From Nitrospirota bacterium (GTDB lineage Bacteria; UBA2233), in NCBI GenBank assembly GCA_011620345.1, contig WOZJ01000011.1:1-39530 (forward strand): DNA of 39,530 nucleotides. Reading direction: 5' to 3'. This document shows, one piece after another, positions 1,003 through 8,001 of the stretch. Position numbers and translations under genes: made by a program. Numbering within the stretch: position 1 is the stretch's first letter; the number at the start of each line of letters is the position of its first letter. Below the pieces are notes generated by a model. It had not been told where the DNA came from. It saw nothing but the letters and a program-made list of their open reading frames with translations, and ran no database searches.

Positions 1003-2586
1003 ATGTTCGGGGCAGCAGGCAAAGGCTTGATTGCGGGCGTTTTGCTCGCTGGTTGGGCTGGGGGTGCGATGGCGCTCGATGGCGCCGATTTTCGTCGCAA
1101 GATTGAAGAGTTTGACCCCCTTGGGAAAGCGATTACTCAGCCGCTCCAAAGGAGCGTTCCAGGGCTCGAGATGAAGGCCAACCTCGAGAACTTGACGAGC
1201 CTGAGCATCCACAAGGACATGAACCGAAACCGAAACCTTCCTTCTACGAGCTCGAACTTCCAGGGTATCCACTGGCTCATGGATCTCCAGACGACCTACA
1301 GGCTGAATCCTGACCTGAAATTCACGGTTCGAAACATGTTCCTTTACAACGCGGCCTACGACTGGAACGACGGGTTCCGGAACTCGTTCTACGATTCTAT
1401 GGACACGCTTCACTATTACAACACTATGGATCAGATCCTCAGGGAATGGTATGCCGATTACCGAATCGGGGGGCTTCAACTGCGCGTCGGGAAACAGCAA
1501 GTCTCCTGGGGAAGGGTGGATGGCCGCCAGATTCTGGATATGGTGCACGGCTTCGATTACACCTGGTACCCTTTTCCCACGATCAACCCCTTTATTCCCG
1601 TGGAGTACCAAAGAATCCCCGAGTTCATGGTAAACGCCGATTATTTCTTTAATGGCTACGAATTCCAGTTTTTGTGGATACCGAACTTCGAGCCGAGCTT
1701 CGGGCCGACAGTCTCGGGCAGCCCGTGGGAGTTCAACCCGCGCGCTTCCTCGGCCATGGACCGCTTCTCGCGCGTGTCGTTTGCGAAGGCGGACAAGCCC
1801 GCGAGGAGCTTTGAAGACAGCCAAATCGGGGTGAAGCTGGGGGCGATGAAATACGGCTGGGACGTATCGTTGCACTATCTTTGGAGTTGGTCCGACTCGC
1901 CAACGATGTTTCAAAACGTGCTCTTGTTCGATAGGTTTAACCTCCCACCCATGCCAAAGTCTTCTTTGGCCGCCTCATCAAGCTTGAATACGGGCTTTAT
2001 TCGCGATCTTTGGCCGCCAGTGCACGTTCATTTGAACCCCAAGTACACCCGGGTGCACAAGTTCGGCCTGGGCGCTGACCGCTCCTTTGACTGGCTTGGC
2101 CGCCAGTGGGCGCTCAAGTTTGAAGGCCGTTACCTTAAGGGTAAATACTACCAGGTGAGGAACTACACCCCCGAAAACCACGGATGGGACAAGGCCGACT
2201 CGCTTTTGACGGGCGTTCAGCTCGAAACTTACTTTTATAAAGACTGGACAAACATCTTGCGCTGGGACCACGAGCACATCTTCGGCTACGACGGCGATAT
2301 GCTCGATTTGCCCGTCGGCTCGCCCCTCAACCGAAACCAAGATGGCATCTACTGGACCGTGCTCAAGCCTTTCGGGTTTACCAACGACAGGCTTACTATG
2401 AGAAGCCTTTGGATATGGCTTTCGGGTGACGGGGGGTTCCGCTACGAGCCTAACGTTACCTACGAGCTCTCTGAAAAACTCACCGTTCTTTTGGGCGGGC
2501 ATCTCTACTGGGGCAAGCCAGGAGGCGTTTTCGGCCAGTTCGCAAGGCACGATGGCGTTGACTTGGGGGTACAGTACGTGTTTTAA
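1003..2586 (+). CDS. DUF1302-like outer-membrane beta-barrel protein
   Basis: AAGGAGG RBS; signal peptide (..AGGAMA-L); LREWYADY, LRVGKQQVSWGRVDG..ILD motif; alternating beta-strand pattern; C-terminal GVQYVF beta-signal; adjacent to a DUF1329-like gene. Confidence 0.8.
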   Translation: MFGAAGKGLIAGVLLAGWAGGAMALDGADFRRKIEEFDPLGKAITQPLQRSVPGLEMKANLENLTSLSIHKDMNRNRNLPSTSSNFQGIHWLMDLQTTYRLNPDLKFTVRNMFLYNAAYDWNDGFRNSFYDSMDTLHYYNTMDQILREWYADYRIGGLQLRVGKQQVSWGRVDGRQILDMVHGFDYTWYPFPTINPFIPVEYQRIPEFMVNADYFFNGYEFQFLWIPNFEPSFGPTVSGSPWEFNPRASSAMDRFSRVSFAKADKPARSFEDSQIGVKLGAMKYGWDVSLHYLWSWSDSPTMFQNVLLFDRFNLPPMPKSSLAASSSLNTGFIRDLWPPVHVHLNPKYTRVHKFGLGADRSFDWLGRQWALKFEGRYLKGKYYQVRNYTPENHGWDKADSLLTGVQLETYFYKDWTNILRWDHEHIFGYDGDMLDLPVGSPLNRNQDGIYWTVLKPFGFTNDRLTMRSLWIWLSGDGGFRYEPNVTYELSEKLTVLLGGHLYWGKPGGVFGQFARHDGVDLGVQYVF

Positions 2587-2741
2587 AGCTCTAGGGACAA
2601 AAGGTCTTGCAGGCTCCGAGCGCTTTTATGGCACATCCTGCGGGCAAGCGCTTTGTAGGGGGGGATTCAGCGGCAGCTGGAGTCCAGCTAATATAACCCA
2701 GGGGTTGATATTTGAGATATAAGTGGCGTTTAAGGCTTATT

Positions 2742-2778
2742 AAAAAGCGAGGGTAGCCCTAAGCATCGGGCTACCCTC
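2742..2778 (-). terminator. Rho-independent terminator of the molybdopterin oxidoreductase operon
   Basis: Perfect 11-bp stem GAGGGTAGCCC (2749-2759) / GGGCTACCCTC (2768-2778), 8-nt loop, followed on the minus strand by GCTTTTTA; 20 nt past the last operon stop codon. Confidence 0.8.
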
Positions 2779-2798
2779 TAGAAGGCGCGATGGATCCG

Positions 2799-3038
2799 CT
2801 AGTGAGGCAGAAGGCCGAAGATTTCGAGGAATGTTGAAGCAAGCCAACTTAGGTAGTCCATACCACCGCCGAGCGTGGCACTAAGCATCGGGGAGAGAGA
2901 AAAAGAGTTTGTGATCTGCTCTGGAAGGCCGATTAAGGCGTAGACCCACCCGCTAGCAAAATCAAACGAGGCAGGAAGTGTATCCAGCAGGTTTAGCGAC
3001 ACGTTGTTGATCAGGTAAGTGGGGGACAGGTAATCCAT
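2799..3038 (-). CDS. Small hydrophobic protein of unknown function (79 aa), last gene of the Mo-enzyme operon
   Basis: GGAGG RBS upstream of ATG; 15 nt after the previous stop; followed by the terminator; no Lys/Arg/Cys, Leu/Ser/Gly-rich. Confidence 0.7.
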   Translation of the reverse strand: MDYLSPTYLINNVSLNLLDTLPASFDFASGWVYALIGLPEQITNSFSLSPMLSATLGGGMDYLSWLASTFLEIFGLLPH

Positions 3039-3053
3039 ATTTAGATTCCTCCG

Positions 3054-3296
3054 CTAAAAGTCAATTACAGGGATAGATCCCGCCGAAGCCCCAAGGATCT
3101 GCGAAAGCTGAACCATCAACTGGCCGGAGGGAACGGCTATTGCGTTTACGAGGGGGTGCAGGCTCGAAGGGGTTAAGCCTCTGAGAATGTTAGGTAGGCC
3201 TACCCCCAGAAACGTCCCCAAGAATCCTCCTGCAAGGTTTGGCAACAACCGGCCTGCGTAGCTAGCCGATTCAAGAAGCCACGTTACGTATTGCAT
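3054..3296 (-). CDS. Small hydrophobic protein of unknown function (80 aa, MQYVTWLLES...)
   Basis: AAGGAG RBS 6 nt before the ATG at 3296, so the track's 18-aa N-terminal extension is probably not real; 19 nt after the DmsB-like stop; GGFLGTFLGVG hydrophobic segment. Confidence 0.7.
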   Translation of the reverse strand: MQYVTWLLESASYAGRLLPNLAGGFLGTFLGVGLPNILRGLTPSSLHPLVNAIAVPSGQLMVQLSQILGASAGSIPVIDF

Positions 3297-3315
3297 GTGT
3301 TTCTCCTTATGCTTC

Positions 3316-3882
3316 CTAGATGCCGATGTAGACTCTTGGCTTGAACACAATATTTGGCTTCGTCAGGCTTGGGTCTGCAAACCCGCCCTTAACCTGGCGT
3401 ACGTTGCCGTACTTGGCCAGGATCTCTTCTTTGGGGCCGAAATCTAACGCCCTCGTCAGGCAAGACATGACGCATTGGGGCTTCATCCCTTTTTCCAGCC
3501 GATCGATGCAGCCCGTACACTTCTCCATCATCGGGAGCTCGCTGGGGTTCATCGTGGCGAACTGGGGGGCGTCGTAGGGGCAGGCCGCCTTGCACTGTTT
3601 GCAGGAGATGCATTTGTCTAGGGGCAAGACAAGCCCGTTATCCTCTAGCTTGACAATATTCCCCACGGGGCAGGCCGCAATGCATGCCGGCTCGTCGCAG
3701 TGGTTGCACGAAATAGAGAGGTTGTAAACCTTGATGAGCGGGTAGATGCCCTCTTCGGGCGAACTGACCTTGCGCCACCTAGCCGGACCGAGGGCGACCT
3801 TGTTCCAATCCTTGCACGCTACAGTACAGGCTCTGCACTGTTGGCAGCGTTCCTGGTCGAAAAACCACATGTATTGAGACAT
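3316..3882 (-). CDS. DmsB-like iron-sulfur electron-transfer subunit (4x[4Fe-4S])
   Basis: MSQYMWFFDQERCQQCRACTVACKDWN start; Cys groups CNHCDEPACIAACP, CISCKQCKAACP, KCTGC..PQCVMSC..RALDFG; C-terminal TKPNIVFKP; AAGGAG RBS. Confidence 0.92.
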   Translation of the reverse strand: MSQYMWFFDQERCQQCRACTVACKDWNKVALGPARWRKVSSPEEGIYPLIKVYNLSISCNHCDEPACIAACPVGNIVKLEDNGLVLPLDKCISCKQCKAACPYDAPQFATMNPSELPMMEKCTGCIDRLEKGMKPQCVMSCLTRALDFGPKEEILAKYGNVRQVKGGFADPSLTKPNIVFKPRVYIGI

Positions 3883-3912
3883 GGTCTTCTCCTTTATAAA
3901 GTTTGGAAAGAC

Positions 3913-3943
3913 GGGCTACTCCGCAAAAGGGCGAGAGTAGCCC
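3913..3943. other. Intercistronic stem-loop between the catalytic and Fe-S subunit genes
   Basis: GGGCTACTC-CGC / GCG-A-GAGTAGCCC inverted repeat (9+3 bp, 6-nt loop); only a weak U-tract on the minus strand. Confidence 0.7.
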
Positions 3944-3953
3944 TGATCATTTG

Positions 3954-6794
3954 CTACTTTCTGGTCTTAGTGGATTGTTGTCCTTGGCTAATATAGGCCT
4001 GGACGTTTTTGTCTGCAGTCTTACCCTCGGCCTTCTCCTGGTTCCAGGTGATCCCATCGACGAACACGCCGCTTTCGGGGTTGGTAAGAGTGCTGTCCGG
4101 TGTTTGAGAAACGCCGTCAATTGCAAACGGGTAGGTAGGAGACCAAACGCCGCCATCGTTGAGCGGGTTGGCAGGGTCGCCTTGGAAGGCTGGGGCATCG
4201 GCAACTTTCCGGACATCCACCAGGCCCGTGTGGGTGACAATGTTGGCCAAGAACTGTAAAGCATGCGGCATCATCGTGCCAAGGAACTCACAATCGCGCG
4301 TGAGCGTGCTTTGGCTGCCAGTTAGGTCAACCCCTTCCCCGCCTGGCTTAGCAAAGCTCGGCCAACGGCCGTTTTCGAGTGCCATGACGCCTTTCTTGAC
4401 CCGGTTTGTCACCCATGCGCGGACCTGAACGGTTCCACGGTCGTTGAACACCTGGACGATGTCGCCGTTTTTAACCCCGCGTGCCGTAGCGTCTTCGGGG
4501 TGTATCCATACGACATCGGGCCCCCACACGTCGTCTAACAGGACATTGTTGCTCCAGGCGCTATGGCTCCGTCGGATGCTCGCCGGAGCGCAGGTCTGCA
4601 GCGGGTACGTTGCCTGTTTTGGGTCTAGCGGGCCTTCCCAGTGATCCACCCATGCGGGGATGGGAGGGATACGTATCATCATATCCCGCATGCCTGGGTA
4701 ATCGTTCGGGAGCCACCACATATCGCGGGCACTGGGCGCGCTGTGCAAACGCTCGAGCGTTTCCGAGTAGACCTCGAACTTTCCCGAGGGCGTGCCGAAA
4801 GGAACCCCGTGGTTGATCTGGGCGGTGTAGGGGCTAGTCAGTGTGGGTAAGGGCTCGTAGTGGTCCTTTTGCACCGCCTTTTCTGGATTTTTACGCATCT
4901 CTTCGACGCTCGGAAGCTTGGGGTTGACGAGCCGCTCCATGGCCACGGCGATCTTGACGACCGAGCTTGTGCTGGGGTTTCCCTGCCACGCCGTACCGAC
5001 ACCACCCTTTTGGGCAACGAGTCCCCAGATTTCCGCGTCGGGTTTCGATTCCCAGGCAGGCTTGACGAGGCCCCCATGGTAGGCGACTCCAGGGGAGCCG
5101 GAGGCCAATAGGCTCTGGAAGTCCTCGAGCTCGACCGAGGTGGCAGCAGGGAGGACGATATCGGAAATCTTGGCCGTCGCCGTCATGGCGTAGTCTATCG
5201 CGCAGCTGAACTCTATCCTTGGCTGGCAGAGCCCCTTGGTGATCTTCCCCGATCCAGGCCAGGTGTTGACGGGGTTGCCCACGGAAACGCTCGCCCGGAT
5301 GATGGGCGCCTTTTCGCCGAAAGGAAGCGGCTTATCCGGGTTGAGGAGCATTTCGCCCAAAAATACGGCAGGAACGATTCGAATGAGAAGCCCCGGCGCC
5401 GCACCCACAAACCCCGCCATCGAAGGGGTCATCATCCCCACCGTCAGGCCCATCATGCCGGCTGCGCTCTTGAGCGTGTTCAACAAGGACATCGACGGGA
5501 GCGACCCGGCGATGCCGGCCCAGTTGCCGAGCTTGCCCACGTTACCCGTGGCGATCGCCATCGTGATGCCCGCCCAGTAGTAGGAATGTCCGATAGCACC
5601 CCGGTTCGGCCCGAGCGACATCATCAACGCGGCCGGTTGTTTGGAGGCGTACTCGATTGCCAACTGATGAATCTTGGTGGCAGGGATGCCCGTGATCCGC
5701 TCTGCCCACTCGGGGGTCTTGGCGATTCCATCGGCCCAGCGGCGTACCTTGGGGTCGTCAGAGTCGGTCTTGCCCAATAAGTAGGCCTGGTACTGGTCCC
5801 AGCCGTTCGTAAACCGCTTGATGTAGTCCCAGTTGATCAAGTTTTCTTGCATTTGTGCGTTCATCATCGCAGCGAATAGGGCAGCGTCAGACTGCGGGTT
5901 AATCGGGATCCATTCGTCTACCAGGTAGCTGAAGGCATAGTTGAAGCGCGGGTCGATCCCGTATACCTTGACTCCTCGCTCCCTTAGACGTTCTCGCATC
6001 TTGGCTAAGCGGTAGGGTGTGTTGCAGAGGTAGGTGTTCGTCGTCTGGTTGCAGCCTACTAAAATCACCATGTTGCTGTGCTCGGCCACCTGACGAAAAT
6101 CCGTCAACCCTTGCCCAGTTGTCCCCATCTCGACGCCTAACCAGTCGGTTATGACACCGCCCATCGAGGTGTCGTTCAAGGGCATGACGACGGGGCCCGC
6201 CAACGCCGGAACGACCCCGATCATGCCGAGCGTACCCTTGAAGCCGTTCACCCCCATGGACATGCCGGCCGTCATCGCGTTTATCAGGACGGAGTGCGGC
6301 CCGTACTGCTTTCCGATGCGCCTTAGCTCAGTGGCCACCTTTTGGGTGGCGTAGTCCCAGCTTACCCTGCGGTACTCCCCAGACCCCCTCGGACCTGTCC
6401 GTTCTAAGGGGTATTTCACGCGGTATGGGTCGTAGACTCGGAATTTGGTCGATTTGCCCCGGACGCAGTTTCTTACTTGCGGACAGCCGTAGGCATCGTC
6501 TGCATCGCCCGTGTCGTCAGTGGCCACCCGTGTGATCCTGCCGTTCTTTACGTAAATCTTGTGAAGGCAGTTCATTCCTGCGCAGTTGAATGAATCTGAC
6601 GCCCAATAGAAGGTCTCGTCGTCGAAGGCCGGAACCTGCGCCCCTTGGGGCACTTGCGCAAACAAGCGTTTAGGGCTTGCAAGCGTTGCCAATGCTCCTC
6701 CGGCTGCTGCGAGCGCCGCGGAGGCCTTCAGGAAGATGCGCCTCGAAACGGAAGGGAGAAAGCCCTCCTTCGAAAGACCGCTTAAGGACCCCAT
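3954..6794 (-). CDS. Tat-exported DMSO-reductase-family (DmsA-like) molybdopterin oxidoreductase catalytic subunit, substrate unknown
   Basis: Twin-arginine signal SRRIFLK; QVRNCVRGKS..RVYDPYRVKYPLERTGPRGSGEYRRVSWD; IDPR, WIPINPQSDAAL, KTPEWAERITGIPA, TATAKISDIVLPA, TPSGKFEVYS, RSHS and WIHPEDATARGVKNGD..VFNDRG motifs; GGAGG RBS. Confidence 0.93.
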   Translation of the reverse strand: MGSLSGLSKEGFLPSVSRRIFLKASAALAAAGGALATLASPKRLFAQVPQGAQVPAFDDETFYWASDSFNCAGMNCLHKIYVKNGRITRVATDDTGDADDAYGCPQVRNCVRGKSTKFRVYDPYRVKYPLERTGPRGSGEYRRVSWDYATQKVATELRRIGKQYGPHSVLINAMTAGMSMGVNGFKGTLGMIGVVPALAGPVVMPLNDTSMGGVITDWLGVEMGTTGQGLTDFRQVAEHSNMVILVGCNQTTNTYLCNTPYRLAKMRERLRERGVKVYGIDPRFNYAFSYLVDEWIPINPQSDAALFAAMMNAQMQENLINWDYIKRFTNGWDQYQAYLLGKTDSDDPKVRRWADGIAKTPEWAERITGIPATKIHQLAIEYASKQPAALMMSLGPNRGAIGHSYYWAGITMAIATGNVGKLGNWAGIAGSLPSMSLLNTLKSAAGMMGLTVGMMTPSMAGFVGAAPGLLIRIVPAVFLGEMLLNPDKPLPFGEKAPIIRASVSVGNPVNTWPGSGKITKGLCQPRIEFSCAIDYAMTATAKISDIVLPAATSVELEDFQSLLASGSPGVAYHGGLVKPAWESKPDAEIWGLVAQKGGVGTAWQGNPSTSSVVKIAVAMERLVNPKLPSVEEMRKNPEKAVQKDHYEPLPTLTSPYTAQINHGVPFGTPSGKFEVYSETLERLHSAPSARDMWWLPNDYPGMRDMMIRIPPIPAWVDHWEGPLDPKQATYPLQTCAPASIRRSHSAWSNNVLLDDVWGPDVVWIHPEDATARGVKNGDIVQVFNDRGTVQVRAWVTNRVKKGVMALENGRWPSFAKPGGEGVDLTGSQSTLTRDCEFLGTMMPHALQFLANIVTHTGLVDVRKVADAPAFQGDPANPLNDGGVWSPTYPFAIDGVSQTPDSTLTNPESGVFVDGITWNQEKAEGKTADKNVQAYISQGQQSTKTRK

Positions 6795-7198
6795 AGGGGA
6801 TACCCTCCATATACGTTAGTGGGAAACACAAAAATTACCTTGTCCCCGAAGGTAGCATAAAAGGGAATAGAATGCAATATACTTTAATTAGTCGAATAAA
6901 GCCATGTATATAAGAGTATATAATGTAGCGTATATGTGCATAAACGCCTTATAACAAGCCATGCGTAAAAAACCAGGAAATTTTTCCATACATAAAAACC
7001 TGAATCTATTGTAAATATATATGGCGATCGATAAAGTACACAACAAATCGGCCATTCACCCTCTTGTTTCCTAAGCCTTAGGAGGTTGCTATGATGAAAA
7101 AGAAGGATTGTGCTTTTCGTTTAGATAGGCTAAACTACCCGCTTATGGTGCGGTTTTTAAGGATTCTGTGATCAAAGGGAGGCGAAAAGAGCAAAGAC
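6795..7198. promoter_or_regulatory. AT-rich divergent regulatory region between the Mo-enzyme operon and rpsB
   Basis: 404-nt region visibly AT-rich relative to flanking genes, with TATATA repeats and short palindromes. Confidence 0.7.
7108..7136 (+). promoter_or_regulatory. Putative sigma70 promoter of the rpsB operon
   Basis: TTGTGC-N17-TAAACT, about 60 nt upstream of the rpsB ATG. Confidence 0.45.
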
Positions 7199-8001
7199 AT
7201 GGTGAACCCAGGGCAAGTCTCGATCAGGCAAATGCTGGAAGCCGGCGCTCATTTCGGGCATCAAGTGCGCAGGTGGAACCCAAAAATGAAGCCCTATATC
7301 TTCGGCCAGCGAAACGGCCTGTATATCATCGACCTTCAAAAGACCGTCAAGTTTTACGAAGAAGCCCTTACTTTCCTCAGGGAAGTTGGAGCACGCGGAG
7401 GAAAAGTGCTTTTCGTCGGCACAAAGCCTCAAACCCAGGAAGTTATTCGGGAACAGGCGAGCCGGTGTGGAATGCCCTATGTCATCAAACGCTGGCTTGG
7501 TGGGATGTTGACGAACTTCCCAACAATTCGAAAGACCGTGGAACGCCTAGAGCAGATTGAGCAGATGGAAAAAGAAGGCCAGCTCGAGCTGCACACCAAG
7601 AAGGAGGCGACGAAGCTCCGCAAGGAGCGCGAAAAGCTTTTGACCTACTTAGGAGGCATCCAAACGATGACGAGGCTTCCAGATGCCCTCTTCGTCGTAG
7701 ATACCAAGAAAGAGGCTATTGCGATCCACGAGGCAAACATCTTAGGAATTCCCGTCGTTGGGCTGGTAGATACAAACGGCGACCCTGACTTTGTCGAATA
7801 CATCGTGCCCGCCAACGACGACGCGATCAAATCGGTCCGGTTTTTTGCCTCTGGCGTCGCCGATGTCCTTTTGGAGGGCATGAGGCTGGCCAAAGACATG
7901 GGGATTCGCGTGGACATTCCTCAAGATGGCGCTGTCGCGCCGCAGGGCATGCCCTCGGGATCCATCGAGGAGACCTTTTTGGAGGAGGGTGTGAGCAAGG
8001 C

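Follow-up and report, generated by a model that had tools for sequence, protein, structure and literature searches.

A conserved DmsAB-type molybdoenzyme cassette with two new small-protein families in a Nitrospirota bacterium

Analysis of a 39,530-nucleotide contig of a Nitrospirota bacterium (assembly GCA_011620345.1, contig WOZJ01000011.1; the whole stretch is called the window below) showed a four-gene operon on the minus strand at positions 2749-6794, in which the genes of a DmsAB-type molybdoenzyme are followed by two very small genes. The closely packed open reading frames (ORFs), as read from the sequence, encoded a catalytic subunit of the molybdenum bis(pyranopterin guanine dinucleotide) (Mo-bisPGD) type with a twin-arginine translocation (Tat) signal (A; 3954-6794, minus strand, 946 aa), a DmsB-like Fe-S subunit with four [4Fe-4S]-type Cys groups (B; 3316-3882, minus strand, 188 aa), and two microproteins of no known family, micro1 (3054-3296, minus strand, 80 aa) and micro2 (2799-3038, minus strand, 79 aa). 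In the mechanical ORF list micro1 had 98 aa owing to an upstream TTG start; 80 aa was counted from the ATG. The spacers between A and B, B and micro1, and micro1 and micro2 were 71, 19, and 15 nt, and direct reading of the sequence gave a Shine-Dalgarno-like site ahead of each gene (GGAGGG upstream of A, AAAGGAG upstream of B, and AAGGAG and GGAGG ahead of the ATG of micro1 and micro2, respectively). A terminator-like hairpin of the intrinsic type (2778-2749, minus strand) lay 21 nt past the micro2 stop codon and closed the operon; its stem of 11 bp, of which 8 were G-C pairs, enclosed a loop of 8 nt and was followed by GCTTTTTAAT, and the T-run directly after the stem read GCTTTTT. The original prediction, made from the letters of the window, had described a four-gene minus-strand operon with a ribosome-binding site for each gene and a closing terminator, and this description was borne out. 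The operon is a conserved, so far undescribed DmsAB-type variant with two new microprotein families.

The order A-B-micro1-micro2 was found in all six loci with enough downstream DNA, with gaps of 10-23 nt after B. These loci were the window, two in a sister genome of the same genus (G001), and three from metagenomes; among the loci that ended early, L016 stopped inside B and L012 just after A. The sister genome carried two paralogous cassettes (A 64% and 54% identical), each with B and then two small ORFs, and the three metagenome loci had the same gene order (A 67%, 46%, and 44% identical). In the five loci other than the window, identity to the window copy was 42-69% for A, 61-78% for B, and 19-52% for the microproteins. 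Locus GC content was 0.47-0.57 (47% in one locus, 54-57% in the others). The flanking genes differed by locus; in the window they were rpsB-tsf-pyrH-frr on one side and LolA-like and DUF1302 genes on the other. The conserved order amid differing flanks indicates that the four genes travel as a self-contained unit and are real genes. The convergent LolA-like/DUF1329 and DUF1302 genes were considered as members of the system, similar to Shewanella DmsEF, and were rejected, being absent from the other loci.

In all six loci the two small ORFs were 61-86 aa long, with open frames and Shine-Dalgarno-compatible spacing. Profiles of micro1 and micro2 matched the cassettes of the window genome (one) and of G001 (two), and elsewhere in these genomes one micro2-like fragment in G001. 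This 38-codon frame (contig C53, 1346-1456), 32 kb away from the cassette of that contig, matched the micro2 profile over its C-terminal half (E 4.5e-7) and may be a remnant of another cassette. Neither micro1 nor micro2 was found in the 53 outgroup loci, 40 of which had an A-like ORF. Scanning of the genome contigs with A alone gave no relatives, and scanning with the clade alignment gave the two loci of the sister genome. The microproteins are kept in synteny beside the A-B pair in 6/6 loci, which was the conservation check that had been proposed for them.

The A protein matched the Pfam families Molybdopterin (1.3e-33) and Molydop_binding (2.2e-19). Its twin-arginine signal peptide (residues 1-47, SRRIFLK ... 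LFAQ; 6654-6794, minus strand) scored 16.7 bits with TIGR01409, exactly the cut-off, and 16.2 bits with Pfam TAT_signal, under the cut-off of 22.7; the Tat motif was kept in 10/10 sequences of the A clade, with R18 and R19 invariant. The top NCBIfam model was dmsA_ynfE, with BisC- and TorA-type models next, and the nearest solved structures were Rhodobacter dimethyl sulfoxide (DMSO) reductase and trimethylamine N-oxide (TMAO) reductases (E about 1e-52). Residue S210 of A (NDTSMG, with an invariant D-T-S motif) aligned with the DYS serine at chain position 189 of R. sphaeroides DorA and was invariant across 60 aligned sequences. The DorA serine is the Mo ligand, Ser147 of the mature protein. 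By this alignment A keeps the serine Mo ligand.

Several features set the A clade apart. At the FS0 site, DmsA-like sequences read C-x3-C-x3-C; the A clade had D67-x3-C71-x4-C76 ... C110, with Asp for the first Cys and spacing longer by one residue, and every position was invariant in the 10 sequences. Pfam Molybdop_Fe4S4 scored 16.6 bits on A, under its cut-off of 22.7. The clade also had an insertion of ~22 extra residues (about residues 437-466; 5397-5486, minus strand), the region being 38-41 residues long in the clade versus a median of 18.5 in 50 DmsA-like sequences. The insertion was almost uncharged, with abundant Gly, Met, Ala, and Leu, and aligned to the DorA segment holding the funnel tryptophan, presumably the lid residue of the substrate funnel. 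At the C terminus an extension (about residues 865-946; 3957-4202, minus strand) carried motifs conserved inside the clade; counted over positions 845-946, this part had 85-102 residues in the clade versus a median of 21 in the others, about 80 extra. The AlphaFold model of A had a mean predicted local distance difference test (pLDDT) score of 80.6, with a confident core, values of 53-56 in the insertion, and mostly low confidence in the extension, as expected for segments that need a partner. The loop at residues 165-215 (about 6150-6300), which aligned with the active-site Tyr/Trp pair of DorA, read TAGMSMG in the window and GGGYGG in most clade members. Given this variable active-site loop, paralogous A proteins of the clade may differ in substrate.

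Comparison with known families placed A outside canonical DmsA. The score with TIGR02166 (DmsA/YnfE) was 435.9 bits in two stretches, under the cut-off of 777.7. A word-indexed search gave 11 A clusters at 42-99% identity, all metagenomic and 925-948 aa long save one fragment; after these, identity fell to 33% for ordinary DmsA-like proteins. A phylogenetic tree of 61 rows was constructed (quick search, LG+G4, with Shimodaira-Hasegawa-like approximate likelihood-ratio test values as the sole support), with E. coli proteins as the only references; NCBIfam scores of the characterised Psr, Phs, Arr, Ttr, and type II enzymes, which were left out, were far lower. In this tree the 10 A-clade sequences were monophyletic (support 99) on a stem of 0.62 and fell outside a 44-row group (99) with E. 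coli DmsA, YnfE, and YnfF, while TorA, BisC, and TorZ lay deeper. The clade was sister to two Bathyarchaeia sequences (92), a placement flagged as a long-branch join.

The B protein matched Fer4_11 (9.5e-22) and scored 159.2 bits with TIGR02951 (DmsB), under the cut-off of 214.1, with all 16 Cys of the four groups present; 16/16 were invariant in 6 sequences. B shared 43% identity with E. coli DmsB and with YnfG, from which it also differed by an 8-residue deletion and by a C-terminal tail that is shorter; it had no signal peptide. With A and B under the NCBIfam DmsA and DmsB cut-offs and A in a clade that is separate from, and not nested within, DmsA/YnfE, the predicted undescribed subfamily was upheld. 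No homologous operon was found that carried an ordinary dmsC and lacked the small ORFs, the small ORFs were conserved, and A did not fall within canonical DmsA with an orphan dmsC elsewhere. A literature search at title and abstract level found no published description of the A clade or of such microproteins.

Searches with micro1 and micro2 returned no Pfam and no NCBIfam family at E <= 0.1. Word-based searching found close copies only (3 for micro1, 4 for micro2). A micro1 profile searched against 1,835,955,588 representative proteins gave 10 relatives, each 61-80 aa, which is comparable to the number of A clusters (11, with identities from 42% upward); profile E-values across subclades went down to 1e-10 to 1e-20. 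The two were also examined as paralogues of each other, which was rejected at an hhalign probability of 3.3%. Both proteins had 0-3 Lys+Arg, were neutral to acidic, were rich in Leu, Gly, and Ser, and had no signal peptide; micro2 had no Lys or Arg, six Asp+Glu, and a grand average of hydropathy (GRAVY) of 0.57. The GRAVY of micro1 was 0.75, and the best 19-residue Kyte-Doolittle windows were 1.42 (micro1) and 1.09 (micro2). The microproteins, which had been described as hydrophobic, are so moderately by GRAVY and not strongly by these windows. The best 18-residue Eisenberg means of the window copies were 0.69 for micro1 and 0.60 for micro2.

The micro1 model, built from a 15-row alignment, had a pLDDT of 89.4 and predicted a hairpin of two helices of 40 and 30 residues (residues 2-41 and 44-73) joined by the turn RGLTPSS. 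Helix 1 was Gly-rich, with an uncharged, Gly-zipper-like stretch between Arg16 and Arg39; the invariant micro1 columns were M1 and G23 only. Foldseek with this model returned nothing at E <= 0.001, and the VIA-align hits, none above Z 8.4, were limited to helical hairpins of a generic kind (ESCRT-III, ATP-synthase c, Esx, and designed bundles). The Esx chains reached Foldseek E >= 3.4 and VIA Z 7.5, a range common for helical models, and micro1 had no Pfam WXG100 match. The ESM Atlas yielded no usable result for micro1 and, for micro2, only leads below threshold (DUF948, YtxH, and TrbL-like, scores <= 0.78) and a poor model (pLDDT 0.57). In complex prediction of B, micro1, and micro2 with micro2 as the scored partner, ipSAE was 0.00 in two runs, which, with the micro2 fold uncertain and no controls, was counted neither for nor against binding.

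Pfam and NCBIfam searches showed no match of the DmsC, NrfD, or TorD families to any of the four operon proteins, and none of the four contained a CxxCH motif; the sole ORF with such a motif on the contig was DnaJ. The predicted absence of a polytopic anchor, a cytochrome, and a TorD/DmsD chaperone therefore held for the operon; it did not hold for the genome, which encodes one TorD/NarJ-family protein, two NrfD proteins, and many multihaem cytochromes. The window genome (1.8 Mb, 96.8% complete) had no DmsC match at this completeness. One of the NrfD genes lay in a Hyb-type [NiFe] hydrogenase cluster and the other in an Fe-S/NrfD/GcvH-like cluster. The TorD/NarJ-family gene, the only one (PF02613; 279 aa; contig C23, 3094-4943), adjoined a gene for a 359-aa multi-[4Fe-4S] ferredoxin on another contig, far from either MopB gene; in G001 one TorD-family gene stood against two cassettes. 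The other MopB protein of the window genome had no Tat motif, so that A was the only Tat-type molybdoenzyme. TatC and MoeA were encoded, and the multihaem c-type cytochromes had up to 13 CxxCH motifs, some being c3/c7-like. Other parts of the genome thus offer ordinary candidates to stand in for the anchor and chaperone absent from the operon, namely the periplasmic multihaem cytochromes and the TorD-family gene.

DMSO-reductase-family modules comprise a catalytic subunit and an Fe-S subunit, plus an NrfD/DmsC, cytochrome b, or cytochrome c partner. The cassette resembled E. coli DmsABC/YnfEFGH in the Tat-signal Mo-bisPGD subunit with serine at the Mo-ligand position, in the four-cluster B, in the identity of A to DmsA-like proteins (about 30-33%), and in having TIGR02166 and TIGR02951 as the best NCBIfam matches. 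It differed in that both subunits were under the family cut-offs and A was on a long separate stem, in the Asp FS0 site, the 22-residue funnel insertion, and the 80-residue C-terminal extension of A, and in the lack of DmsC (in operon and genome) and DmsD (in the operon), with two unrelated microprotein genes after B. Shewanella ArrAB and Desulfovibrio FdhAB, the latter drawing on the cytochrome c3 pool, are soluble periplasmic A-B enzymes without a membrane subunit. Like the cassette, they combine a catalytic subunit exported by Tat with an Fe-S subunit, lack an anchor gene, and belong to organisms with many periplasmic multihaem cytochromes, and by analogy the cassette would most likely work like these soluble enzymes; however, a small helical pair is not known from ArrAB/FdhAB, and the relation of A to ArrA was distant (6cz7_A, E 2.4e-15).

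Other small proteins of molybdoenzyme operons were also compared. The Pfam database holds a NapE model, but neither microprotein matched any Pfam family at E <= 0.1, and, with the Kyte-Doolittle values given above, membership in TorE/NapE was rejected. In the published summary of their role, TorE/NapE are small membrane proteins, encoded in the operons of TMAO and nitrate reductases, that strengthen the anchoring and multimerisation of the cytochrome TorC and so improve efficiency (PMC6134056). As far as that summary goes, these very small proteins inside molybdoenzyme respiratory operons are the nearest published concept; they differ from the microproteins, which had no Pfam match, showed in the micro1 model a hairpin with helices of 40 and 30 residues and not one transmembrane helix, and occurred as two unrelated proteins with no cytochrome partner in the operon. 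NapD and TorD/DmsD/NarJ are likewise operon-encoded accessory proteins without a signal peptide that serve one Tat-exported molybdoenzyme, and NapD has fewer than 90 aa; however, there was no sequence match, and NapD is not hydrophobic (Eisenberg 0.42, versus 0.69 and 0.60). The DmsC (PF04976) and NrfD (PF03916) anchors, which have eight or more helices, were rejected as identities for the microproteins, which had 79-80 aa, no profile match, and hhalign probabilities of 0.1% and 0.2% against E. coli DmsC.

With the gene content, its conservation, the clade position of A, the aligned serine ligand, and the predicted micro1 hairpin directly established, the best reading, which we hold tentatively, is a periplasmic A-B enzyme fed by cytochromes, with the microproteins as clade-specific accessory subunits packed on the A insertion and extension. 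We infer the export of the microproteins, the electron donor, and the substrate class as follows. The Ser-ligated Mo-bisPGD subunit A, with its Asp/Cys3 FS0 site, would fold and receive its cofactor in the cytoplasm, would bind B with its four Fe-S clusters, and would then be exported by Tat. The microproteins, as long, almost charge-free helical hairpins, would probably lie against the funnel-lid insertion and the C-terminal extension of A, and if so packed they would leave the cytoplasm together with A and B. Electrons would pass from the periplasmic multihaem cytochrome pool to B, and not via a DmsC/NrfD quinol dehydrogenase, and the substrate would probably be an S-oxide, an N-oxide, or an oxyanion.

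Several points weigh against this reading of the microproteins as accessory subunits. Their association with A and B is putative, drawn from strict co-occurrence, and their faster divergence compared with A and B would also fit loosely constrained or independent roles. Charge as low as theirs is unusual for soluble periplasmic subunits. The low-charge acidic composition may be a habit of the lineage rather than tied to the A-B enzyme. In addition, no RNA run was among the 24 sequencing runs with near-identical DNA.

The alternative raised at the outset, a new kind of membrane anchor or quinone adaptor, would have micro1, with or without micro2, forming a membrane hairpin that holds A-B, perhaps as a minimal four-helix quinol site replacing DmsC/NrfD. 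The genome without a DmsC match, with both NrfD genes in other clusters, is consistent with such a tether, as is the uncharged Gly-zipper-like stretch of micro1 helix 1 flanked by arginines. In 6/15 micro1 family members the best 18-residue Eisenberg mean was 0.69-0.83, where E. coli DmsC and CcmD reach 0.92 and the soluble proteins NapD and TorD 0.42-0.56; one micro1 copy (L002) reached a Kyte-Doolittle value of 2.15, and ATP-synthase c-subunit hairpins were among the top fold-search rows, at non-significant scores. However, the 19-residue Kyte-Doolittle mean of the micro2 family did not exceed 1.53, with 3-7 acidic residues along its length and 0-2 basic ones, and second-subclade micro1 proteins had Glu, Lys, or Asp within the corresponding helices. 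No positive-inside pattern and no conserved His, Cys, or quinone-site-like residues were seen, and hhalign against E. coli DmsC gave the probabilities already mentioned (0.1% and 0.2%). With micro2 below transmembrane level, micro1 transmembrane-like in part of its family, and no similarity to DmsC, the anchor or quinone adaptor drew little support and we regard it as unlikely. To be doubted to the same degree is a role in cytoplasmic maturation or Tat proofreading, in which the acidic hydrophobic hairpins, NapD- or TorD/DmsD-like in function though unrelated and not exported, would stay bound to the twin-arginine leader, itself basic and hydrophobic, or to apo-A, until cofactor insertion. Dedicated small chaperone genes in molybdoenzyme operons are well known (by annotation, E. 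coli napD encodes an 87-aa chaperone that binds the NapA signal peptide, and torD and dmsD lie in their own operons), neither microprotein carries a signal peptide, the clade keeps the Tat leader of A well conserved, and G001 has two cassettes for a single TorD-family gene. Yet a TorD/NarJ-family gene is already present in both genomes, the microproteins match neither PF02613 nor another Pfam or NCBIfam family at E <= 0.1, and the strong Shine-Dalgarno sites on both genes would suggest amounts like those of structural subunits.

A further reading, in which the microprotein hairpins and the funnel-lid insertion of A form a lipid-facing helical bundle that docks the enzyme on the membrane, either as a minimal, cofactor-free quinol-coupling module replacing the eight-helix DmsC/NrfD or as a gate bringing a hydrophobic, membrane-dissolved substrate to the Mo site, is speculative and seems improbable. 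Slightly less credit goes to the view that the microproteins are co-transcribed but functionally separate, as members of a class of small proteins, acidic and hydrophobic, that is spread across the lineage and may comprise, for instance, envelope or surface-active peptides. The window genome has 3354 ORFs of 55-110 aa that start with ATG, of which 13 combined K+R <= 3, GRAVY > 0.25, and an SD-like site, both microproteins among them, and this similar composition speaks for such a class; but hhalign (<= 1.5%) and BLASTP (short matches, E 0.002 or worse) related none of those ORFs clearly to micro1 or micro2, which occurred only beside the A-B pair (three cassettes of two genomes and three metagenome loci). 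That the small ORFs are untranslated chance frames in a 3' untranslated region is very hard to credit: the poor micro2 model of the ESM Atlas would agree with it, but both frames were open, 61-86 aa long, and compatibly spaced in 6/6 loci at 42-69% identity of A, the profile E-values between subclades were 1e-10 to 1e-20, and the micro1 model was confident.

A conserved new small-protein pair confined to a single clade would extend the set of modules of the DMSO-reductase family and would open a way to study the assembly, export, or positioning of an A-B enzyme that lacks an anchor. Should they prove plain accessory subunits, the cassette would be a modest extension of a well-known family; should the lipid-facing bundle be true, it would be a new way to wire or feed a DMSO-reductase-family enzyme in an organism whose habitats are hydrocarbon-rich. 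Since A is the only Tat-type molybdoenzyme of the lineage, the cassette is likely central to its respiration in oil-affected sites.

The lineage is of phylum level and rarely sampled, with one other genome in the genome set searched and two genomes listed in a review table. Near-identical DNA was present in sequencing runs of 8 studies (oil field, marine sediment, soil, marine, sludge, and seawater). Positions 2700-4000 showed 0 differences, wherever covered, from contigs of four DNA runs (X5, X7, X13, and X16) of four studies (soil, marine, sludge, and seawater); the window DNA may itself derive from some of these runs. Identical contigs over four habitats indicate either a very widespread clone or data sets that are not independent.

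At least six further small ORFs of 60-95 aa were observed in the window genome away from the molybdoenzyme genes, with an SD-like site, 0-2 Lys+Arg, a net acidic charge, and a GRAVY of 0.74-1.21. They were located at C50:161628-162230, C50:174728-174928, C26:88554-88736, C56:93-368, and C66:74229-74420 and included a pair of 95 and 94 aa, ORFs of 60, 63, and 91 aa, and a 66-aa ORF between genes for 2-, 11-, and 12-haem cytochromes. No homology was detected between these ORFs and micro1 or micro2 or, mostly, among themselves. In the same genome, the cluster at C30:1344-5286 encoded an Fe-S protein of 313 aa and an NrfD-family membrane protein of 437 aa flanked by three glycine-cleavage-H-like (lipoyl-carrier) proteins, then a sigma-54 response regulator. 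An NrfCD-like module without a catalytic subunit is unusual, and it could be a quinol-linked partner for periplasmic enzymes.

No Rfam family, the molybdenum cofactor riboswitch included, matched positions 2500-7400 at E <= 1, and no sigma-70-like promoter was called in the 404 nt upstream of A; the only two sites called in the region lay elsewhere and were within chance expectation. A 9-bp hairpin between A and B (3913-3943, minus strand) was read from the sequence. It had a GGGCTAC/GTAGCCC core in common with the terminator (2749-2778), and the two hairpins could represent a stem-loop repeat, or a site where the mRNA is processed or stabilised so as to set the A:B ratio. The remainder of the window (7199-39462) consisted of housekeeping genes, namely rpsB-tsf-pyrH-frr, an ABC-2 transporter set, hrcA-grpE-dnaJ, lon, LarB/LarC-like nickel-insertion genes, argS, the trp operon, and lptD; the LptD and LolA-like genes indicate a diderm envelope.

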